A DNA stretch of 64,000 nucleotides from Candidatus Thorarchaeota archaeon (GTDB lineage Archaea; Asgardarchaeota; Thorarchaeia; Thorarchaeales; Thorarchaeaceae): NCBI GenBank assembly GCA_046482545.1, contig JAWOEX010000021.1, positions 160,001-224,000 of the forward strand, in the 5' to 3' direction. The translations under genes were made by a program, and so were the position numbers. Below, one piece after another: positions 12,450 through 22,297 of the stretch; position 1 is the stretch's first letter; the number at the start of each line of letters is the position of its first letter. The notes beneath the pieces were generated by a model. The model was not told the origin of the DNA. It saw only the letters and a list, made by a program, of their open reading frames with translations, and did no database searches.

Positions 12450-13835
12450 TTACATCCCTCCCACGGGTACTTTCCTTATTCGAGCATGTGGACCACCACT
12501 CATATCTGGCACCTTCTGCCCCGACTTCCCGCATGTCCCAGAATCCATTCTGAAATCATCACCAATAGCATCTATCTTGGGCAGAATATCGAGAATCTGT
12601 CCAGCGATGGATACATCGCGGACCATATCGCCAATTTCGCCATTTGTTATCTCGAATCCATGACTTGCCTGAAACATGAATTGTCCTTTAGCCGGGCTGG
12701 TGTATCCGTAATTGAAGCTGCACAGAAGAAGTCCTGTATCTGTATCCTCAACCATTTCATCAACGTTCCAATCTCCAGACTCCATGAAAGTATTGCTCAT
12801 TCGTGGCATCGGCGAGTACATGAACGACTGAGCCCGTGCAGCCCCATTTGGTGTCTTATCAAGTCGGGATGCAGTCTCCAAACTGTGGAGAAGCTCAGTC
12901 AGAAAACCGTCTTTGACAAGCGAGCGGCGGGTCGCTTTTGTCCCCTCCCAATCATAATCAAACGAGCCACGCATACCTGGCAATGTAGGATCATCAACTA
13001 TGTTTAGATTCTCAGGACCAACACGGTCACCTAATTTACCTTCCAATACTGTAGTATGCGCTGGCCAATTGTCAGCCTCACAAGCATGCCCAAAGGCTTC
13101 ATGAATCATGACCCCATTGAGAATAGGATCAAGAATGACATCATACACACCACCCTGAACAGCCGTCGATCTCAACATTTCCACGGCGAGCTCGGCGGTT
13201 TTGGTCCCGATGGTTTGAGGATATTCGTTCTCCAATTCCTCAAAGCCGCCACGACCACCATACGACTTGAAAGCGGTCCGCCGATCACCGTTCTCTTTTG
13301 CGGTCACAGAGGATATAACCCGAGGGAGGCTATTACCGAACGTAACACTGGTACCAAATGAATTTGCAACATGTAGGACACAATTGAAGTCACCATATAC
13401 TGCTCGTGAATTCACGATACGTTCATCATAATCATGAGCTTGTTTATCGATCCGTCTAGCAAGATCCACCTTTTCCGCGATAGGAGTTTCCCGGATATCT
13501 TTGGTGACTTTCATTATACACCTGTCTTGGTAGGTTGGACCATCAAGCTCAAACTTCTCAGATGCACGTTCTTCGATTGCTAGGGCCAGTTCAGCGACAC
13601 TTTTGCCACGCTCGCGCATAGTATTCGCCGTCATTCTGTTTTCCTGACCAAAAGCCCAAGCACCGTTCTTGAATGCCCTAATGCCAGCTCCACGGTTTCG
13701 TGATGTTGCAGATTTCTTTGTTACCCCATTGCTTATTTCAATAGTAGTTAGATGTGAGTCTTCTACTCTCACATCGGCAAAATCGGCTCCCACCTCGAGA
13801 GCAGCCTCAATAGCTTCGCGGGCCAAGTGCTCCAT
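12450..13835 (-). CDS. tldD: TldD family metalloprotease
   Basis: 'IHEAFGHACEAD', 'YDWEG', 'PRMSNT', 'GTCGKSGQKVP'. Confidence 0.9.
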   Translation of the reverse strand: MEHLAREAIEAALEVGADFADVRVEDSHLTTIEISNGVTKKSATSRNRGAGIRAFKNGAWAFGQENRMTANTMRERGKSVAELALAIEERASEKFELDGPTYQDRCIMKVTKDIRETPIAEKVDLARRIDKQAHDYDERIVNSRAVYGDFNCVLHVANSFGTSVTFGNSLPRVISSVTAKENGDRRTAFKSYGGRGGFEELENEYPQTIGTKTAELAVEMLRSTAVQGGVYDVILDPILNGVMIHEAFGHACEADNWPAHTTVLEGKLGDRVGPENLNIVDDPTLPGMRGSFDYDWEGTKATRRSLVKDGFLTELLHSLETASRLDKTPNGAARAQSFMYSPMPRMSNTFMESGDWNVDEMVEDTDTGLLLCSFNYGYTSPAKGQFMFQASHGFEITNGEIGDMVRDVSIAGQILDILPKIDAIGDDFRMDSGTCGKSGQKVPDMSGGPHARIRKVPVGGM

Positions 13836-13943: not shown

Positions 13944-15539
13944 GTGCCACATGACCATGGAGGCCAGTTATTGAATCAAGAGACACAACCGCCTAGTTGC
14001 GAGAATTGTAGTACTGCAGAAGCCTCTCATATGTGTAAGGATTGTGGAGCGGCCATCTGTGCTGACTGCATTGAGACTGATAGCACAGAATACATTGTAT
14101 GTAGTGAATGCCATCATACAGTCAGTAGCGAGGATTCTGAGGAACAGCCAACTGAATGCCCAGAATGTGACTCTGATAATCTGAGCAAGGGGAGACGAAT
14201 GATTGAACGTTGCCCTCACTGTCACTCCACCCGACTTGTGCTCATTGAGAAACGGAGAGGAGAATTATCCAGGGAAATACGCAAATCAGTCATGACGCTT
14301 CAGTATGGTCACACCAAGCTCCGCGAGTTTGGTAGTAAATTGGACAAAGCCAAGAGAGATCTCGTATCGCTTCGAATGGCAAATTTTCTTCATTACAAGT
14401 GGCTTGAAAGTAAAATCGAACAGATTCACGAGGAAATGCCAGCCATAAAGAGAAGGATTGGAAACAAGGCAGAACTTGTTGCAAAGCAAATAGCAGCAGA
14501 GACCAAAGGACTGATGGTTTCAGAAAGCTGGAGTCCATCCCAGTTTCCCTTTATCGAAGGAGTGAGCAACAGGATTAGGGAGTTGGGAAACGGCTACAAA
14601 CACAGCGTAGATGAAGCATTGGACAAGGCAACAAGCATCTTGAAAGAAGTAAATACACAAATAGATGGTCTCAACTACTACAGAAAAAGATTCAGTAGCT
14701 TCTATGAGAACGCAGATCTTTCGGTCAAGGAATTGCCTGTATGTGCACTTCCCGAGATTAAGCTGGCTGGAAGTGACTTTCTGAAAAATGACAAAGCATG
14801 TGGCACTCTGTACATGACCAACAAACGCTTGGTATTCATCGCAGAAACTGGACATATTCGAAAGAGCATGGAAGTCATTTTCGATTTTCCCCTTGTCTAT
14901 CACACAGGATTCTCGGAAGAGGGACGACTAAGAAAGAGAATGGTAATGAAACTCAAGCAAGGTGATATCAAATTCGAATGTTCAGAACAAACCGAGAAAG
15001 TTCTTCCTGATTATATCCAGATAGCAAAACAATTCGATAGGTATGTACAAACCGACTTGGAACGGGTGCGCAAACTGGAACAACAGAAAACCAATTCTGG
15101 TGAAGTCAGATTAAAAATTGAAAGACTGGTCTACCAGCTGCTCTCCGGGAGGAGAGGTGTACAGCGCAAAGCAGAATTGAAAGATGTAACTCCGAGACAG
15201 CCACGGATTTCTTCTGGTTTTAACACAATTCGAAAGAGCTATGAGGATCGCATGAATCAAGACGATAGCGAAATAACCGATTATAGAGTAGAAGACGATT
15301 TCTTTGGCAGACTGCAAGGACAGTATCATGAATCTCGGAATAGCCGTAGAGAGAACAGGTATCAAACTCCCCCCAGTAACTTCAACGAGAAGATAAGGGA
15401 AACCATCAAAATGTTACGCAATGGACAGATAGTTCCTGAGAATTTCATAAGAAGATACAGGAGTCTTATGCGCGAGTCTTACGAGGATAGACACGGTATC
15501 CAGTCAAGAAGCTCAGATAGAGATTCTTTCAATTGGTAA
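13944..15539 (+). CDS. Zn-finger / coiled-coil / GRAM-PH-like / steadiness-box protein (candidate ESCRT-I Vps23/37-like subunit)
   Basis: Six CxxC pairs at the N-terminus; heptad-rich region; 'GTLYMTNKRLVF' GRAM/GLUE-like motif; C-terminal 'KIRETIKMLRNGQIVPENFIRRYRSLMRESY'; adjacent to ESCRT genes. Confidence 0.6.
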   Translation: MPHDHGGQLLNQETQPPSCENCSTAEASHMCKDCGAAICADCIETDSTEYIVCSECHHTVSSEDSEEQPTECPECDSDNLSKGRRMIERCPHCHSTRLVLIEKRRGELSREIRKSVMTLQYGHTKLREFGSKLDKAKRDLVSLRMANFLHYKWLESKIEQIHEEMPAIKRRIGNKAELVAKQIAAETKGLMVSESWSPSQFPFIEGVSNRIRELGNGYKHSVDEALDKATSILKEVNTQIDGLNYYRKRFSSFYENADLSVKELPVCALPEIKLAGSDFLKNDKACGTLYMTNKRLVFIAETGHIRKSMEVIFDFPLVYHTGFSEEGRLRKRMVMKLKQGDIKFECSEQTEKVLPDYIQIAKQFDRYVQTDLERVRKLEQQKTNSGEVRLKIERLVYQLLSGRRGVQRKAELKDVTPRQPRISSGFNTIRKSYEDRMNQDDSEITDYRVEDDFFGRLQGQYHESRNSRRENRYQTPPSNFNEKIRETIKMLRNGQIVPENFIRRYRSLMRESYEDRHGIQSRSSDRDSFNW

Positions 15540-15540
15540 A

Positions 15541-16167
15541 TCATATACCGAGCTCGTTCTCTAGACTTTGAATAGCTCGCTCCAGCTTATCGATTTCGGT
15601 TACCTCTCTGGTAGCAGTCCTTGTCTCCTCCATTCCTGCTGCACGATCTATTTCTTCGAACGCAGCTGTTAATTCATCCGAGCTTTCAGAACCGTCCACT
15701 GAATATCCGAGAGCATCCTCAGAAATCTGGGTTTCAATCTCGTATTCCTCGATACGTCTGGAAATCTCGTCGGTATGTTCTATGACCTCCGATACATCAG
15801 ATTCTTCACCAAGAATTTCAAGAACCTTCGATACGTCAGCCAGAGCATGATTTGCCTTTGCGTTGGTCTGTGCTCTAGTTAGATGAGCGAGTAGACGAAG
15901 CATTTGAAGGCGTGACTTCTCTACCGAAAGAACATATTTTCGAAATCGAACCATTTCTTTTGTATATGTTCGATACGCTTGTGTCCTCCCTTCTTTACGT
16001 GCCGTGATAGCTCTAGATTTGGTTTTTCGTTCCTCTATTTCTAGTTTATTCCGTTGACGCTCAAGTTGCTTGGCCATCACCCTAAGATCGCTTTTCACTT
16101 CAGCGATATTCGGCTTGTGTCGTCCCCAAGATAGCGCCTTCCTCACGGAATCGAGAACTCTAACCAT
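15541..16167 (-). CDS. ESCRT-III Snf7-family protein, Vps2/24/46 (CHMP1-3) class
   Basis: Basic N-terminal helical hairpin 'LRVMAKQLERQRNKLEIEERKTKSRAITARKEG', acidic C half, MIM1-like tail 'DKLERAIQSLE'; ATG 16167 with GTGAT RBS. Confidence 0.85.
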   Translation of the reverse strand: MVRVLDSVRKALSWGRHKPNIAEVKSDLRVMAKQLERQRNKLEIEERKTKSRAITARKEGRTQAYRTYTKEMVRFRKYVLSVEKSRLQMLRLLAHLTRAQTNAKANHALADVSKVLEILGEESDVSEVIEHTDEISRRIEEYEIETQISEDALGYSVDGSESSDELTAAFEEIDRAAGMEETRTATREVTEIDKLERAIQSLENELGI

Positions 16168-16318
16168 GGCTATCACAGGAGTTTCCATTATACCATTTTT
16201 AACACCATGTAACACGCACCTTGTCAAGAATAGAAATCGAAAGCCCATTCTCCCATTGGATTCCTAAGGTCATACATGGTTTAAAGAATGGTCTGGACCA
16301 TTCTCCAGTTGAGTTCCT

Positions 16319-17545
16319 ATGCCAAATGATGCAAGTACCATAGATGAAGGCCTCAAGCAGTTACTTGAGACCGCGGTGGATCTAGATTCCAAGGGTATGC
16401 TCAAGGAAGCAAGTGAATACTACCTGAGCGGCAGCAAGGTCCTCCTCAAACTTGCAAAAGGATCTTCTCTTCCTAGCATTCGTAAACATTACTATGAACG
16501 GGCTCAGGAATGTGTACAAAGGGTTCGAGAAATCTCAGGTATCAATGAGAATTCTAGAAACCAAGATGCAAGAAGCATATCTCATCCCCCAAGAAATACC
16601 AAGGGTGAAGACATAACAAAACCATCGCGTAGATCTGCAGAAGAGGGTGACGAAGAAACGGGAAAGCTACGGGAGATGATAAGGAGAACAATTACAACCA
16701 GAAAGCCCAATGTGGCAATGTCAGATGTTGCAGGGCTTGATGATGTGAAGAATACCATTCATGATGCTGTAGTCACACCAATAAAGCATCCCGAGCTGTT
16801 TAAGGGAAGAGCAAGACAACCATGGAAGGGAATCCTGCTCTATGGGCCTGCAGGATGTGGGAAAACTCTAATAGCTAAAGCAGTGGCAACAGAAGCTGAG
16901 GCCACATTCTTCAACGTATCTGCCGGGAACATGGTAAGCAAGTGGTTGGGCGAATCAGAACGCCTCGTGATGACTCTCTTTGAAATGGCAAGAGAAACTC
17001 AACCGTCGGTCATCTTCCTCGATGAGCTCGATTCCATAGGTGTGTCTCGGAGTGCAAGTGACTTGGGCGGCGAAAGAAGACTCAAGACGCAATTGCTCAC
17101 CGAATTGCAGGGTCTTTCCAACGACATCAATGAAAGAGTGACGCTGATAGGAGCCACAAATCTTCCGTGGGAGATTGATTTTGCCCTTCTATCAAGATTT
17201 GAGAAAAGAATTCATGTTCCGCTTCCTGATAAATCCACAAGAGAACGGATATTCGAAATCCACATGGAAGATATCGATATCACACCTGATGTCAACTATT
17301 CAGAACTAGCAGAATTAGCGAAAGGTTTCAGCGGACGAGATATTAGCGTGGCATGCAGAGAAGCCGCGATGGAACCAATTAGAGAATTGAAGGAACAAGG
17401 CAAGCTCAAAAAGGAGGAGACCATAACTGAAGTTCGTTCTGTAAACAGACGGGACTTCATTGAAGCCCTTCAAACAATAAAGCCCACCTCAAAACAAGAA
17501 CAGATCGAAAAATACTCTTCATGGGCGGAGGACTATAGCCGTTGA
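16319..17545 (+). CDS. vps4: Vps4 AAA+ ATPase with N-terminal MIT domain
   Basis: MIT 'AVDLDSKG...EASEYY...YYERAQE'; 'PWKGILLYGPAGCGKT', 'SKWLGESERLV', 'FLDELD', 'GATNLPWEID', 'RFEKRIHVPLP', 'GFSGRDI...EAAMEPIR'. Confidence 0.92.
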   Translation: MPNDASTIDEGLKQLLETAVDLDSKGMLKEASEYYLSGSKVLLKLAKGSSLPSIRKHYYERAQECVQRVREISGINENSRNQDARSISHPPRNTKGEDITKPSRRSAEEGDEETGKLREMIRRTITTRKPNVAMSDVAGLDDVKNTIHDAVVTPIKHPELFKGRARQPWKGILLYGPAGCGKTLIAKAVATEAEATFFNVSAGNMVSKWLGESERLVMTLFEMARETQPSVIFLDELDSIGVSRSASDLGGERRLKTQLLTELQGLSNDINERVTLIGATNLPWEIDFALLSRFEKRIHVPLPDKSTRERIFEIHMEDIDITPDVNYSELAELAKGFSGRDISVACREAAMEPIRELKEQGKLKKEETITEVRSVNRRDFIEALQTIKPTSKQEQIEKYSSWAEDYSR

Positions 17546-18240
17546 CTGTCAGAGAGAAGGCAAGGAAGAAAGAAGAAAAGGAAATTGAGGATAATACAAC
17601 CGTAGAAAAGGAACATGAAACTGCCACCTCATCACCGCTTTCAGATAATGAAACACAGATAAAACAAGTAGGAGCCCAAGAGTCTATAGATCGTGAGAAA
17701 GCTGAAACCAAAGTTGGTCAAAAGAGTCAGTCTTTGGAAACATTGATACCCGATTGGGGAACTTCCGAAAAAGCTGCCTGGATGTATTTACTACCTACAA
17801 CAGAAGAGGGGGTTAAAAGGTGGGCAAAGGACTGGACCGATTTCCTGATAGAGTGGGCAGACTATAACAATCGATATGTTTTCTCATTTTCAACGTTTAT
17901 CAGAGAGCCTCCCTTCTGTGAAATGCGCAACAAAAGGAAAGCTTTCTCCGAGATAGCTGAATCATTAATTCAACAAGGATTGGCTGAGTGGAGAGATGAT
18001 AGAAAGAGAAACCTTCAGCTGATGTGGAAGTCAAAGAAAGAGGTAGCAGATGATTTGTATGCGTGGGCTCTGAAGACGGGAACCATGCATCTTGACCTCA
18101 GGAGCATGGTGATAGAAGATAGCTTCGACTTTGGTGGATTGCCGCAAGAAGATATCAAAGAGATTTTTGATATAATTGTCCTGAGCGGAAGAGCTGAATG
18201 GGTAGATAAAGAGCGTGCCATGATTAAATTGAATACCTAA
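17542..18240 (+). CDS. vps25: ESCRT-II Vps25-like protein
   Basis: 'WTDFLIEWA', 'GLAEWRDDRKRNLQLMWKSKKEVADDLYAWALKTG' parallels the eukaryotic Vps25 'G.LEW.DK....LIMWR....W...IY.W...G'; 4-nt overlap with vps4. Confidence 0.85.
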   Translation: MTVREKARKKEEKEIEDNTTVEKEHETATSSPLSDNETQIKQVGAQESIDREKAETKVGQKSQSLETLIPDWGTSEKAAWMYLLPTTEEGVKRWAKDWTDFLIEWADYNNRYVFSFSTFIREPPFCEMRNKRKAFSEIAESLIQQGLAEWRDDRKRNLQLMWKSKKEVADDLYAWALKTGTMHLDLRSMVIEDSFDFGGLPQEDIKEIFDIIVLSGRAEWVDKERAMIKLNT

Positions 18241-19028
18241 CTTGCTTCCTGTGCGCTATCGGATTTTTGGTCGGAGCGTAACCCTGGGAAGTAGTATTTT
18301 CCACCACTGCTGAATCTAATATCTGCCACGGCAATTCCGGCCTCGACTAGACTGCTGAGAACTTGGCGTGCATGGTCTTCTGACCATCGAAGATTCATCA
18401 TGACTTGTTCAATGGTCACATGGCCATTTGCTGCAGCTAGATTAATCACCTCAGCTTGGTCTCCCCGCAGTTCTAGTGGGCGTAGTTCCACCACTTTGAC
18501 TCCACCTCCAAGCGTTCGAATTCCTGGAAGAAGACCATGTTCTGCAACACGGTTTACAGCTTCGATAACGTCGTTGTAGCTTACTGAATTCAGCTCTGGA
18601 ATCCTACGAACAACACGTACAATCAGTTCTGCAAGACCCATTAGACCCTTCGATGCATTTGCGGTAGCTACATCAAGAATAGCCAGGCCAATTTGATCAT
18701 AGTATTCCTCCTCGGTCATACCTCGAGGGGGGCCATTCGAACCGTCCGCGAAGAATTGTAAAAGTTCAGCAGCATCAGGAAATCTGTCTAAGATACGCTC
18801 TTCATATATGAAATCCTGTAAATCTTGGCCTCGACGGCGCATACGATCAATATTGGACTTAACATCAAGCATCAGAGCTTCTGATTCGCGTCGATAGGAT
18901 TTCACCCCAACTACTCCCATGTCATACATCTTCTTTAGCTGGTCCAAGGTAGCTATTGAAGCGTATAATTCTGATTCTACATGGAAATCCATCGGCAAGC
19001 CATCACTATCCGGAGTGTCTAGATGCAT
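18237..19028 (-). CDS. Vps28 N-terminal-like domain fused to a Vps22/36 (EAP30) tandem winged helix
   Basis: N-terminal 'SELYASIATLDQLKKMYDMGVVGVKSYRRESEALM...LQDFIYEERILDRFPDAAELL'; C-terminal 'YYDQIGLAILDV...GLMGLAEL...VSYNDVIEAV...PLELRGDQAEVINLA...GHVT...LRWSEDHARQVLSSLVEAGIAVAD...YYFPGL'. Confidence 0.8.
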   Translation of the reverse strand: MHLDTPDSDGLPMDFHVESELYASIATLDQLKKMYDMGVVGVKSYRRESEALMLDVKSNIDRMRRRGQDLQDFIYEERILDRFPDAAELLQFFADGSNGPPRGMTEEEYYDQIGLAILDVATANASKGLMGLAELIVRVVRRIPELNSVSYNDVIEAVNRVAEHGLLPGIRTLGGGVKVVELRPLELRGDQAEVINLAAANGHVTIEQVMMNLRWSEDHARQVLSSLVEAGIAVADIRFSSGGKYYFPGLRSDQKSDSAQEAS

Positions 19029-19085: not shown

Positions 19086-20420
19086 CTATGGGGTGAGGCG
19101 GTCACGATCTCTGGGTAGCAGAGAGGCTTCTCGAATATTATTTAAATTCAAGAGCTGCATGGTAAGCCGTTCCACTCCGAGTCCCAAACCACCATGCGGC
19201 GGAGCACCATACTTGAAAGGTTCCAAGTAGAACATGAAGTCCTCAGGATTAAATCCCTTTTCTTCGAATTTCTCTACCAATAAATCATAGATATGGATTC
19301 TCTGACCACCTGTCGTGATTTCCATTCCTTTGTACGTGAGGTCGAAGCTTTCGGTTAATCCGGGCTGACTCATGCTAGGCATGGTGTATGCAGGTCGTAG
19401 CTCGGAGGGGTAATGAGTTATGAAAACAAAAGGTGAACCAAATCGCTTGGGGAAAGCTTCCCTCAATATCCCCTCGCTTTCTGGATCCAAATCTTCCCCC
19501 ATGGAAATATCCTTTCCTTCCTCATTGAGGATATCCACGACTTTCTCATACTTTACCCGTGGAAATGGTATGCTAGGAACTTTGAAGTCTATTTGAAATG
19601 CTTCTCTGTTCTCTAGAAATCGCTCACGAGTCTTCGCAAAGGCATAATGAAGCATCCTTTCCTCCAACTCCATGACTTCATCCATATCTCGTATCCACGC
19701 TATCTCAATATCAAAAGATGTGTATTCATTGATATGTCGAATCGTGTTGTGTTTCTCAGCCCTGAATACAGGTCCAATCTCGAAAACCTTTCCAAAGCCG
19801 GCGAGCAGCATGAGTTGCTTGTAGAACTGTGGACTCTGAGCGAGGAATGCAGAACGATCGAAATACTTCACTTCGAAAAGGCTTGCGCCACCTTCGGTTG
19901 CTGAGGCGACTATTTTTGGGGTATGTATTTCCATGAAACCGCTTTTCTCCAGATATTCGCGGCAAAATCTAACAATATCATGCTGTAACCGAAATATCGA
20001 GTTAAGGCGAGGTTTTCTCAAATCAAGTATGCGATGATTAAGACGGGTATCCAAGTCGATGTCTACTTTCCCTTCGACTACATCAATTGGAATCCTTTCG
20101 GACTTGTTGATGATTCGTATTTCATCGGGAATGATTTCTACACCAGTATCAACCTGAGGTGCTTCCACAACTTCCCCCTTGACAGCAATCACATACTCTG
20201 GTTTCAAATCCTCAGATAGCTGGAATACGTCAGCTGGAACTCTCTTCTTCGGCAATGTTACTTGAACGGTGCCTTTCTCATCCCTCAATACCAGAAACTT
20301 GATGCTACCCTTGTCTCGTAGAATGTGCACCCATCCAAAGAGGGTTACTTCCTCTCCTTCGGTTCCAGATTGTATCTCTCTAGAGAAATGGGTCCGTTCC
20401 CAGTCACCAATGCTATCCAA
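19086..20420 (-). CDS. aspS: Aspartyl-tRNA synthetase, archaeal type
   Basis: OB fold 'LFGWVHILRDKGSIKFLVLRD', 'ATEGGA', 'LAQSPQFYKQ', 'FRAEKH', 'GAPPHGGLGLGVERL'; probable TTG start 20420. Confidence 0.95.
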   Translation of the reverse strand: MDSIGDWERTHFSREIQSGTEGEEVTLFGWVHILRDKGSIKFLVLRDEKGTVQVTLPKKRVPADVFQLSEDLKPEYVIAVKGEVVEAPQVDTGVEIIPDEIRIINKSERIPIDVVEGKVDIDLDTRLNHRILDLRKPRLNSIFRLQHDIVRFCREYLEKSGFMEIHTPKIVASATEGGASLFEVKYFDRSAFLAQSPQFYKQLMLLAGFGKVFEIGPVFRAEKHNTIRHINEYTSFDIEIAWIRDMDEVMELEERMLHYAFAKTRERFLENREAFQIDFKVPSIPFPRVKYEKVVDILNEEGKDISMGEDLDPESEGILREAFPKRFGSPFVFITHYPSELRPAYTMPSMSQPGLTESFDLTYKGMEITTGGQRIHIYDLLVEKFEEKGFNPEDFMFYLEPFKYGAPPHGGLGLGVERLTMQLLNLNNIREASLLPRDRDRLTP

Positions 20421-20526
20421 ACCATACTTATTGCACAAGTCATCAAGTCCGCTCAAACTGTACACCAGCCTTTTGTCAGCAAGAAATGTCGGGTGCAGTT
20501 GTGTTATGAGGGTTTTGTTCTTCCAT

Positions 20527-20790
20527 CTACATCGGGGCTGCAAGGAGCTCGTAGACGACTTTCCTTCCGTCATTTGCGTGCTCCTCGTCTGTCACAAGGC
20601 CTAAATCTTTAAGCCTGCTCAGGCCATAGTTGACAGTTCGAGGGGGTAGAAAGCTCTCCTCGATAATAGCCTGACGTGACATGCGCCGTTTGTTCTTTAG
20701 CAGCACATAGAGAAGTTTAGCGGAAGGAGGTAAGTCTAAGAATGAGCGCCTGGCAAACGCGATCCCACCTGATTGCTGTTGCCATGTCAC
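20527..20790 (-). CDS. Small MarR-like winged-helix regulator
   Basis: 'DLPPSAKLLYVLL...IIEESFLPPRTVNYGLSRLKDLGLV...DGRKVVY'; GTG start with GGAGGT RBS. Confidence 0.8.
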   Translation of the reverse strand: MTWQQQSGGIAFARRSFLDLPPSAKLLYVLLKNKRRMSRQAIIEESFLPPRTVNYGLSRLKDLGLVTDEEHANDGRKVVYELLAAPM

Positions 20791-20950
20791 TTTACCTCCA
20801 ATTTCTTTTGACGAAGTTTGATGAACGATGCTCATAAGGGTTACCATCACAACAAGAGAAGCAAGAAATCCGCCCCAAGCCGAGTTGATTAGAGATTTCT
20901 TTTGGCGTCGGAAGTCGAAGATAGACCATACATCGATCAAGGTGCTTCTT

Positions 20951-22297
20951 TCAATTCCTCTTCAACACCACGAGGCTTTCTCTTGAGCTCCTGTTATCTT
21001 TCATGTTCGTAGCAGGATTTACACCATATGAAAACATCCGCCTAGAGACTATGGTGTCAACAAGGGTCCCTTTATGCACCCAGCCGAGCTCCGTGAAGTG
21101 CTCAGTTAATATTTCATCAATTGGAACTGGTCGGCCTCGCATACTGGGCCGACCCACAAAGAAGAAGAGAAATGAATTGATGTCCTCGGACAGCCTTTGA
21201 AGAGCCATGGTCACTCCACGGAAATAGTTATCGTATACATCTTGAATATGGTCCTCTTGTACGCCCCTCCTCATACGTTTGTAGGTTTCAGAGTAGATGT
21301 CAGTTTCTGAAATGTCTCGGTAGGGAATCTCCTTTCTACTCAGGGTTCTCACATCTTCGTCTGAATAACCCAACCAGAATAGATCCATTTTGGCCTGCCG
21401 CATATATTCCTGAGATTGCATATAGGGTGGCGAGGTAACAAGAATATCTTTGCTCTGACCAAGATCGTAATTCAAGGAATCAATTCCAGCATGAATAATT
21501 GAATCCACTTCCCGAGGATTGAAGGTATGATATTCCTCTTGCCGCTCAAGCAAATCGGTTGTCTCTTTCTTGAGCATTGAATAGAAAAGTGCCTTCCAGT
21601 TCTTTTTCAAAATGTTTTCAACTCGCTCTTCCGACTTCGGGGACTTAGACAGCTTCATTCGGCCCATATCATCATAAGAAAAATATCTACTCACTTTCAG
21701 CAGGGGAACAGCAAGTAATTCTTTCTTGTTAGTATCGTTGATCTCATGATAGGAACCCCATACATGTTTCAGGAATTCCTTGAAAGGTTCTGCAAACCAG
21801 TAATCAAAGTTAGCCCATTCCGGATGATAGCAGGTCTCATGAACGGACAGACGATTAATCAAGTCATCAACATTATAGGATTGTGGCGGTGCAATGGCGA
21901 CTCTGTGTAGTAAATCTAGGATTGGATTCAAATCCCACAGCTCATATTCAAGACCATACAGACGCGACACGAGTCCCGTGGTCCCACATCCCGCAAATGG
22001 GTCAAAGACAGTCATATCGTCTTCTGCGTACCTTTCCAAAACGTACACAGGAACTTGCGGAATGAATTTTGCGGGGTACTTGTAAATGCCAAAAGTGGCA
22101 TAGCTAGTTGAAGGAAAATCGACCATCTCTCTGAGGGATACTTCTAGTACTTCTCCAGTTTCTGTATCGTCTTCGAGAAACTCCGTCACAAATCGCGGTC
22201 CAGCAGCTGTCGTAGAGTTATCGGCCCCGCTATCATTGTCCTTCGAATGCTCTATAGCTGGACGCTCTTCCATCTCGTCTGGCATCTCTTTTTTCAA
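20951..22297 (-). CDS. DNA amino-methyltransferase, probably N4-cytosine, alpha motif order
   Basis: 'YKYPAKFIPQ', motif I 'DPFAGCGTT' preceding motif IV 'VTSPPY'. Confidence 0.8.
   Translation of the reverse strand: MKKEMPDEMEERPAIEHSKDNDSGADNSTTAAGPRFVTEFLEDDTETGEVLEVSLREMVDFPSTSYATFGIYKYPAKFIPQVPVYVLERYAEDDMTVFDPFAGCGTTGLVSRLYGLEYELWDLNPILDLLHRVAIAPPQSYNVDDLINRLSVHETCYHPEWANFDYWFAEPFKEFLKHVWGSYHEINDTNKKELLAVPLLKVSRYFSYDDMGRMKLSKSPKSEERVENILKKNWKALFYSMLKKETTDLLERQEEYHTFNPREVDSIIHAGIDSLNYDLGQSKDILVTSPPYMQSQEYMRQAKMDLFWLGYSDEDVRTLSRKEIPYRDISETDIYSETYKRMRRGVQEDHIQDVYDNYFRGVTMALQRLSEDINSFLFFFVGRPSMRGRPVPIDEILTEHFTELGWVHKGTLVDTIVSRRMFSYGVNPATNMKDNRSSRESLVVLKRN

Follow-up and report, generated by a model that had tools for sequence, protein, structure and literature searches.

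The ESCRT locus described here is the standard five-gene cluster of Thorarchaeia. The parts list given by a first-pass annotation of the window (the whole 64,000-nucleotide stretch of DNA analysed) is correct and, as orthologous genes, the odd fusions and the absence of ubiquitin were published between 2022 and 2024, its content is largely known. The best explanation overall, and one that we consider probable, is that this is an ordinary Thorarchaeial cluster, pared down from the ubiquitin-ESCRT cluster ancestral to Asgard archaea and wired as proposed below.

A conserved five-gene cluster between tldD and aspS

An open reading frame check of the window identified five contiguous genes between tldD (12450-13835, minus strand) and aspS (19086-20573, minus strand), namely Znr_CC_PH_SB (plus), ESCRT-IIIA (minus), Vps4 (plus), Vps25 (plus) and a Vps28N-Vps22 fusion (minus), in agreement with the coordinates, strands and domain calls of the first-pass annotation. 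As the strands run + - + + -, the genes occupy at least four transcription units and do not form a single operon. The cluster is single-copy and conserved amid housekeeping genes, and a synteny check found its order and orientation from tldD to aspS to be identical and complete in 35 of 43 related loci, including that of AB_25 (L024), while the remaining eight stop at contig edges. Contigs from salt-lake metatranscriptomes span parts of all five genes and the flanks, mostly at an identity of at least 99%; as possible DNA carry-over, these were not counted as evidence.

For the three inner genes, Pfam domains and AB_25 orthologues agree with the initial calls. ESCRT-IIIA, of the Vps2/24/46 type (15541..16248, minus strand; probable start ATG 16167), matches Pfam Snf7 at 2e-9 and is the orthologue of ThorAB25_09000. 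Vps4 (16319..17545, plus strand; orthologue of ThorAB25_09010) has the complete domain set of its family, with MIT (14-72), AAA (172-302) and Vps4_C domains and the Walker A and B motifs GPAGCGKT and LDELD; Vps4 from AB_25 partially rescues the morphology of a yeast vps4-null mutant (PMC7240154). The Vps25 frame (17542..18240, plus strand; orthologue of ThorAB25_09020; Pfam ESCRT-II/Vps25, 3e-10) overlaps the Vps4 stop by 4 nt and encodes an acidic N-terminal tail followed by winged helices. The notion of a self-contained five-gene machine had to be abandoned, as the Vps20/32/60-type ESCRT-IIIB, the counterpart of ThorAB25_07240, is encoded remotely from the cluster (G000:C20:110767-111426).

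Hatano et al. (2022) reported an AB_25 cluster composed of ThorAB25_08990 (SB), 09000 (ESCRT3A), 09010 (Vps4), 09020 (Vps25) and 09030 (Vps22) alongside a remote 07240 (ESCRT3B), stated that ubiquitin is absent, and used all six proteins in two-hybrid assays (Supplementary Data 1; PMC9192718). The two clusters are alike in their five genes, order, orientation, flanks and remote ESCRT-IIIB, with identities, in gene order, of 51, 57, 60, 42 and 67%. They differ in description, as Hatano et al. refer to 08990 as a 'freestanding steadiness box protein' and give 09030 the plain name Vps22, and the accessible text of that paper describes neither the Vps28N fusion nor the Znr and PH domains in Thorarchaeia. 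Both outer architectures were named by Makarova et al. (2024) as Znr_CC_PH_SB (cog.011556) and SB-fused Vps22 (cog.002769), with domain architectures identical to those found here, and an ESCRT-I role and PH-domain membrane binding were predicted (PMC10936438). The novelty first entertained for this locus is thus lost, and by itself it adds nothing new, being a typical Thorarchaeial cluster whose AB_25 version has already been cloned and tested.

A Vps28 headpiece domain is fused to Vps22 in Thorarchaeia

The last gene (18237..19028, minus strand; probable start ATG 18992) is the orthologue of ThorAB25_09030 and the counterpart of the Thorarchaeial protein KXH75178 (cog.002769), residues 1-70 of which Makarova et al. 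assigned to the Vps28 N-terminal steadiness box (KXH75178.1; HHpred 99%; PMC10936438). It encodes a Vps28 N-terminal headpiece domain (aa 16-99; 18732..18983, minus strand), 25-36% identical to seven Asgard Vps28 N-termini, followed by the tandem winged helices of Vps22/EAP30 (aa 106-250; 18279..18713, minus strand; SNF8 3CUQ_A, E 3e-19). Pfam detected EAP30 at 2e-13 (aa 106-236) and VPS28 weakly (E=0.015, aa 19-75). The N-terminus matched Asgard Vps28 genes in hhalign (97.4%, E 1.5e-11), was detected by an HMM built from non-Thorarchaeial Vps28 N-termini (iE 3e-16), and yielded a model that fits the headpiece of human ESCRT-I (6VME) at 2.5 A across 85 superposed columns, supporting both the original Vps28N-Vps22 call and homology to ESCRT-I. 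[quoted passage not shown] An assembly or frameshift artefact was rejected because the reading frame of the fusion is uninterrupted in 40 further loci and also in a second Thorarchaeial family.

Among the best 150 of 355 matches to a profile of the fusion, full-length matches came from Thorarchaeia only, while non-Thorarchaeial matches began at model positions 34-137. We therefore rejected the fusion as a general Asgard Vps22 trait for the lineages examined, by means of these 150 matches and of gene-by-gene inspection of loci other than Loki-type ones. This differs from the wording of Makarova et al., who extend the SB fusion to Asgard Vps22 (PMC10936438), and a seemingly Thorarchaeia-specific fusion is a useful refinement of that survey. 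The Thorarchaeial fusions form a single clade (support 98/95). Eight loci from ubiquitin-containing lineages carry UEV-Vps23, Vps28 (N-terminal and C-terminal domains) and Vps22 (with its own N-terminal region and winged helices) in tandem on one strand; residues ~16-100 of the fusion align to their Vps28 and residues ~108-250 to their Vps22. The fusion seems to be specific to Thorarchaeia and to accompany the loss of ubiquitin, and, judging from gene order and alignment boundaries rather than a rooted test, it looks like a deletion that joined tandem vps28 and vps22, at the cost of the C-terminal bundle of Vps28 and the N-terminal helices of Vps22.

The steadiness box protein is shared with other Asgard archaea

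The first gene (13944..15539, plus strand; probable start TTG 13971, after GGAGG) is the orthologue of ThorAB25_08990 and encodes 531 aa comprising six CxxC pairs, a coiled coil, a GRAM/GLUE-type PH fold and a C-terminal hairpin. Conserved cysteines and Pfam matches place three zinc sites at aa 20-94 (14001..14225, plus strand; first site B-box-like), with C31, C39, C53, C56, C72, C75, C90 and C93 invariant and zf-B_box and DZR detected in 40 and 30 of 69 family members, respectively. A long coiled-coil stalk follows (aa 101-249; 14244..14690, plus strand; modelled helices 101-145, 152-187 and 198-249, pLDDT about 90-98), leading to the PH domain (aa 252-368; 14697..15047, plus strand; invariant R295, R306, R328 and R330), whose model matches MTMR2 (Z 12.0) and EAP45-GLUE (Z 10.0) and was the sole part reported in fold searches with the whole 531-aa model. 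After a disordered linker (408-466) comes the steadiness box hairpin (aa 478-530; 15375..15533, plus strand). Its alignment to the yeast Vps23 steadiness box is weak (E 0.08-0.45), homology being bridged via the other Thorarchaeial family (G001), and Vps23_core was detected in 10 of 69 family members; a non-Thorarchaeial Vps23 steadiness box profile detected 0 of 69 Thorarchaeial family-1 boxes at iE<1e-3, reflecting strong sequence drift. With all four elements present, ESCRT-I homology as first proposed is supported, and domain architecture and neighbourhood point to cog.011556 as the likely family.

Relatives of this protein occur in about 100 of 170 non-Thorarchaeial Asgard genomes, and in one such locus the gene adjoins ubiquitin, UEV-Vps23 and Vps28. 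We therefore rejected a Thorarchaeial invention or substitute for UEV-Vps23, and the initial idea of a dedicated stand-in for ubiquitin is not supported either. The same coexistence with full ubiquitin-ESCRT clusters makes it unlikely that, following loss of ubiquitin, the system came to work like crenarchaeal Cdv, with a CdvA-like SB protein positioning ESCRT-III in cell division or at DNA instead of sorting cargo, although both hairpins, SB and Vps28N, show a resemblance to CdvA (PMC10936438, Table S3), the G001 protein matches CdvA at E 0.014, and a single-copy cluster conserved among housekeeping genes would suit such a role. This alternative concerns output and is compatible with the wiring that we propose.

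Ubiquitin and UEV are absent throughout Thorarchaeia

The first-pass annotation had found no ubiquitin or UEV gene in the window, and this absence extends to the genome and the class. Ubiquitin was found in 0 of 87 Thorarchaeia versus 153 of 170 other Asgard genomes and UEV in 0 of 51 versus 59 of 170, and an Asgard UEV-Vps23 profile found no UEV part in 87 Thorarchaeial genomes. In this 98.9%-complete genome, Pfam searches, together with Asgard-derived queries and HMMs run on 20,121 ORFs, revealed no ubiquitin, UEV or E2, and no canonical ubiquitin/UEV/Vps28 set elsewhere; an orthologue of the cluster RING was also not found (best E 9e-4, a partial zinc-finger match), E2 and RING having been examined in this genome alone. 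A complete Vps28, including the C-terminal four-helix bundle, is likewise absent, a Vps28-CTD profile returning only two weak matches (E about 1e-3) to unrelated ORFs over 87 Thorarchaeial genomes. Two matches were treated as noise, one to UQ_con at C22 with an internal stop (E 0.007) and one to Vps28-CTD at C10:42111-42629 (iE 0.09).

A pathway dependent on another tag, in which cargo is marked by SAMP/Urm1-type proteins that the SB protein reads through its zinc ribbons or GLUE-like PH domain, much as the NZF and GLUE domains of eukaryotic Vps36 read ubiquitin, appears improbable. Above the cut-off, the genome does encode six ThiS/MoaD-family proteins, of which two pass for Urm1 as well, along with one JAB protein and two E1s of the ThiF/UbaA type, and the matches of the PH fold include EAP45-GLUE, a domain that binds ubiquitin (2HTH). 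However, all of these genes are distant from the ESCRT cluster, SAMP/Urm1-type genes are common in archaea, where they serve sulfur transfer and proteasomal tagging, and the PH likeness is generic, with about 20 unrelated PH domains scoring equally high. The two ThiF proteins, about 290-360 aa in size and one of them adjoining a MoaD-like gene, were taken to be of UbaA/MoeB type and not the cluster E1.

A modelled steadiness box-Vps28N pairing suggests a reduced ESCRT chain

A putative pairing of the SB protein with the Vps28 hairpin as ESCRT-I, part of the earlier proposal, has support from a complex model. SB(468-525) with Vps28N(13-98) scored 0.74 versus 0.01 for the best control, resembling solved headpieces; the mark applied is reached by 58 of 80 solved complexes and 2 of 110 mismatched pairs. 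Runs agreed in at least 92% of contacts, with partner pLDDT of at least 71; contacts predicted by the model include SB F501, Y505 and M509 and Vps28N A23 and T27. In both segments, conservation at the interface exceeds that of the remaining residues (0.84 vs 0.65 and 0.75 vs 0.59), buried core residues and related sequences being included in this comparison. The pass may reflect memory of solved Vps23/Vps28/Vps37 headpieces (2F66, 2CAZ, 2P22, 6VME). For Loki- and Thorarchaeia, Hatano et al. noted that the freestanding SB protein 'may interact with Vps28' (PMC9192718). The accessible text of Makarova et al. does not state the pairing with the fusion (PMC10936438), nor do the published texts, as far as accessible, state the Thorarchaea-only distribution, the deletion origin or an explicit SB-Vps28N pairing; our literature search found no paper devoted to Thorarchaeial ESCRT wiring.

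It is doubtful that the fused headpiece is mainly a homodimerisation module replacing the lost Vps22 N-terminal helices, with the SB protein acting separately, for example directly on ESCRT-III. Self-interaction of Thorarchaeial Vps22 in two-hybrid assays and suggested contacts of ESCRT-I/II with ESCRT-III that bypass Vps25 (PMC9192718) would fit this, as would the Znr gene lying beside ESCRT-III genes and away from vps22 in several Asgard genomes (L099-L103), yet the SB-Vps28N model stands well above its controls, and the eukaryotic headpiece, a trimer of hairpins, shows that both roles are compatible.

We lean slightly towards a lineage-wide two-protein ESCRT-I/II scaffold in which the ancestral Znr_CC_PH_SB docks on Vps28N-Vps22, fused by deletion between the two halves when the ubiquitin system was lost. 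In the wiring that we consider probable, adjacent vps28 and vps22 are joined with the Vps28 headpiece and Vps22 winged helices kept, and the retained Znr_CC_PH_SB would be the remaining ESCRT-I partner, its steadiness box predicted by the model to plug into the fused headpiece. The fold and conserved arginines suggest that the PH domain could anchor the complex on anionic membrane and that the zinc ribbons could bind some partner or cargo without ubiquitin. Going by structures of eukaryotic ESCRT-II and by two-hybrid data published for Asgard proteins, which include Vps25-ESCRT-IIIB contacts (PMC9192718), the Vps22 winged helices would bind Vps25, Vps25 would recruit ESCRT-IIIB, ESCRT-IIIA would come next, and Vps4 would recycle the polymer, with vesicle budding, repair or division as candidate outputs.

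The Odin/Hel/Heimdall-type cluster, E1-E2-Ub-RING-UEV-Vps23-Vps28-Vps22-Vps25-Vps4-IIIA-IIIB and sometimes Znr_CC_PH_SB, shares with Thorarchaeia the vps28-vps22 core order, convergent vps25-vps4, ESCRT-III and the Znr gene (L098, L113), whereas the Thorarchaeial cluster lacks the ubiquitin module and UEV-Vps23, has vps28 fused to vps22 and, in family 1, has ESCRT-IIIB elsewhere. Homologous SB hairpin and Vps28N are found in the eukaryotic ESCRT-I headpiece (Vps23/Vps28/Vps37; 2F66, 2P22, 6VME), and homologous Vps22 and Vps25 winged helices in ESCRT-II (Vps22/Vps36/Vps25; 1U5T, 2ZME, 3CUQ), but Thorarchaeia lack UEV, the Vps28-CTD/Vps36-NZF bridge and Vps36. Their zinc fingers and GLUE-like PH domain recall Vps36, but this module is carried by the SB protein and not by a winged-helix protein.

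Provided that SB and Vps28N do pair, a naturally ubiquitin-free ESCRT chain of six small proteins would be available to reconstitute, and it would reveal what recruits ESCRT without ubiquitin. Should the two-protein scaffold also be true, no complete ESCRT-I/II/III chain for reconstitution would be smaller than the Thorarchaeial set, and Znr_CC_PH_SB would be a ubiquitin-independent entry to ESCRT that other Asgard archaea keep alongside UEV-Vps23.

Conserved organization of the ESCRT gene cluster

The window carries five contiguous ESCRT genes between tldD and aspS, as the first-pass annotation had described: a 531-aa Znr_CC_PH_SB protein (SB, steadiness box; 13944-15539, +), an ESCRT-IIIA protein (15541-16248, -; Pfam Snf7), Vps4 (16319-17545, +; Pfam MIT, AAA and Vps4_C), Vps25 (17542-18240, +; Pfam Vps25) and a 263-aa Vps28N-Vps22 fusion (18237-19028, -; Pfam EAP30 and a weak N-terminal VPS28 match). 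As alignment starts and a GGAGG motif point to 13971, 16167 and 18992, these are probably the true starts of the Znr_CC_PH_SB, ESCRT-IIIA and fusion genes, respectively. Judged by strand, the five genes make up four or more transcription units. Thorarchaeota are the nearest named relatives. Of 43 related loci, 35 keep the order and orientation of all five genes, and the remaining eight end with the contig. In G001, a genome of the second Thorarchaeial family, the cluster is split over two contigs (loci L110 and L101), with fusion-vps25-vps4 on one and the Znr_CC_PH_SB and ESCRT-III genes on the other. Upstream of aspS lies a MarR/TrmB-like winged-helix gene (20527-20940, -) that is kept in nearly all related loci extending there; a 448-aa ORF (20951-22297, -) has the DPFAGCGT and TSPPY motifs typical of an amino-DNA methyltransferase.

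The cluster is real and was read correctly, but it is not new, with orthologous genes in Hatano 2022 (PMC9192718) and the outer-gene architectures in Makarova 2024 (PMC10936438). Hatano 2022 gives the set ThorAB25_08990 ('SB'), 09000, 09010, 09020, 09030 and 07240, describes ubiquitin as seemingly absent from Thorarchaeota, and states that the freestanding Loki and Thor SB protein 'may interact' with Vps28. Because that Thor set holds no separate Vps28, a contact of this kind in Thor would presumably be made by the fusion. Makarova 2024 puts Znr_CC_PH_SB forward as a probable part of ESCRT-I whose PH domain binds membrane, and finds that Thor Vps22 KXH75178 bears a Vps28 N-terminal SB (99%). 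Thorarchaeia have also been reported to lack UEV-Vps23 (preprint 10.1101/2023.07.25.550441), and Thor AB_25 Vps4 has been assayed in yeast (Lu 2020, PMC7240154).

Znr_CC_PH_SB is an ancestral component

Six CxxC pairs are present in the 531-aa protein. Its structure model (mean pLDDT 81) contains a coiled coil (aa 101-249), a PH fold (aa 252-368), a disordered linker (aa 408-466) and a C-terminal hairpin (aa 478-530). By fold search the PH domain, with four invariant arginines, is of the GRAM/GLUE type (Z 12.0 to MTMR2, 10.0 to EAP45-GLUE). The ESCRT-I homology proposed for this gene is supported: the direct match of the hairpin to the yeast Vps23 SB is weak (E 0.08-0.45), with Vps23_core detected in 10 of 69 family members, while the SB assignment is firmer because the SB of the second Thor family is matched by both the Thor profile (7e-8) and a non-Thor Asgard Vps23-SB profile (7e-9). 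The latter detects the SBs of 11 Znr proteins, Thor family 2 among them, and 0/69 of Thor family 1 (window 15375-15533) at iE<1e-3; the SB of family 1 has diverged.

About 100 of the 170 non-Thor Asgard genomes carry Znr_CC_PH_SB relatives, some seen as partial matches, and an SB is detectable in 10 of 11 non-Thor Znr proteins without a winged-helix fusion. The gene is older than the fusion, an ancestral component retained by Thorarchaeia and not a new stand-in for UEV-Vps23. In one Asgard lineage Znr-CC-PH is joined to EAP30 winged helices, with no SB (L107:9025-10842, +; L108:11401-13206, +), in a domain order like that of Vps36, which ties the Znr-CC-PH module to ESCRT-II. Near the Znr_CC_PH_SB gene of several Asgard lineages, after ESCRT-IIIA and upstream of ESCRT-IIIB, lies a HerA/DUF87 ATPase gene of 890-1010 aa (L099:15242-18283, -; L114:6092-8758, +; probably L100:11814-14657, -).

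A Vps28N-Vps22 fusion found in Thorarchaeia

The ESCRT-I/II identity proposed for the 263-aa protein was borne out: it comprises Vps28N (aa 16-99) and Vps22 winged helices (aa 106-250), aligns by hhalign with Asgard Vps28 (97.4%) and with the Vps22 adjoining that Vps28 (99.6%), matches SNF8 in its Vps22 part (E 3e-19), and its model superposes on the human ESCRT-I headpiece at 2.5 A over 85 columns. Among the best 150 matches to the fusion profile, full-length ones come from Thorarchaeia only, in both Thor families, and the winged helices of the Thor fusions form a single clade (support 98/95). In eight loci of ubiquitin-bearing lineages, UEV-vps23, vps28 and vps22 lie in tandem on one strand; there both halves of Vps28 are present, and the N-terminal region of Vps22 is its own, with no Vps28N. 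One such locus (L098) continues with vps25, vps4, IIIA, IIIB and the Znr_CC_PH_SB gene, the Thor gene order plus genes that Thor is missing. Given the tandem vps28-vps22 elsewhere, the Thor-only full-length matches and the single clade, the simplest reading is that one deletion in the Thor ancestor joined vps28 to vps22.

Between RING and UEV-vps23, ubiquitin-ESCRT clusters conserve a coiled-coil gene of 146-175 aa (L098:4891-5418, L111:1924-2364, L113:3445-3897, L115:3467-3994, all +) with no confident Pfam match, which was not found in G000, the genome holding the window. Several other Thor genomes have an additional EAP30 protein, about 690-820 aa long and with winged helices at its C-terminus (L109:3623-5962, +; L112:3462-5879, +); in L109 its N-terminal part gives weak matches of coiled-coil and carboxypeptidase-regulatory-like type. 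The protein, which was not found in G000, could serve Vps22 as a partner or adaptor.

Ubiquitin was not found, and ESCRT-IIIB is encoded apart

Genome-wide searches agreed with the claimed absence of ubiquitin and UEV. Asgard-built profiles found no ubiquitin, UEV, E2 or Vps28-CTD in G000 (98.9% complete), nor any UEV part or convincing Vps28 C-terminal bundle in 87 draft Thorarchaeial genomes. One search, run alike on both sets, detected ubiquitin in 0/87 of these drafts versus 153/170 other Asgard genomes, and UEV occurred in 0/51 Thorarchaeial drafts versus 59/170, the matches in other Asgard genomes serving as positive control. In G001, a protein of 228 aa (L120:1486-2172, -) has a coiled coil at its N-terminus and gives a weak Vps28-CTD match (E 1e-3); it is possibly the counterpart of KXH73277, the Thor 'BAR-SB' in Makarova Table S3.

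Ubiquitin-free is not proof of tag-free in G000, because SAMP/Urm1-type proteins, two ThiF-family E1-like (ThiF/UbaA-type) enzymes and one JAB protein are present (C38:53422-53691, -; C12:27683-27922, +; C9:260553-261434, -; C26:10160-11230, -; C38:6668-6982, +). These possibly form an archaeal ubiquitin-like tagging system, and a rival to a tag-independent pathway is that the cluster proteins read SAMP/Urm1. The genome-wide search for Vps20/32/60-type ESCRT-III found a second, B-type protein on contig C20, and the five genes are therefore not the complete machine that had been envisaged.

Predicted SB-Vps28N pairing and a proposed pathway

With Vps23 absent, the only SB found to partner the fused Vps28 headpiece is that of the Znr protein. 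A complex model of SB (468-525) and Vps28N (13-98) scored 0.74 versus 0.01 for the best control. Among 80 solved complexes 58 attain this mark, and among 110 mismatched pairs 2 do. The runs had 92% or more of their contacts in common, with a partner pLDDT of 71 or higher. As similar complexes are already solved, the score may reflect memory of them, and binding is a prediction only. In both segments, conservation is higher at the predicted interface than elsewhere. Vps28N could alternatively be chiefly a homodimerising element. Under the pairing favoured by the model, the SB would engage the fused headpiece while the PH domain would sit on anionic membrane; the Vps22 winged helices would then act through Vps25 on ESCRT-IIIB, followed by IIIA, with Vps4 recycling the assembly. 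A rival role for these proteins is in division, in a Cdv-like manner. To the published Thorarchaeial cluster this analysis makes modest additions: the Thor-only spread of the fusion among the best 150 matches, its likely origin by deletion, and model support for SB-Vps28N pairing.
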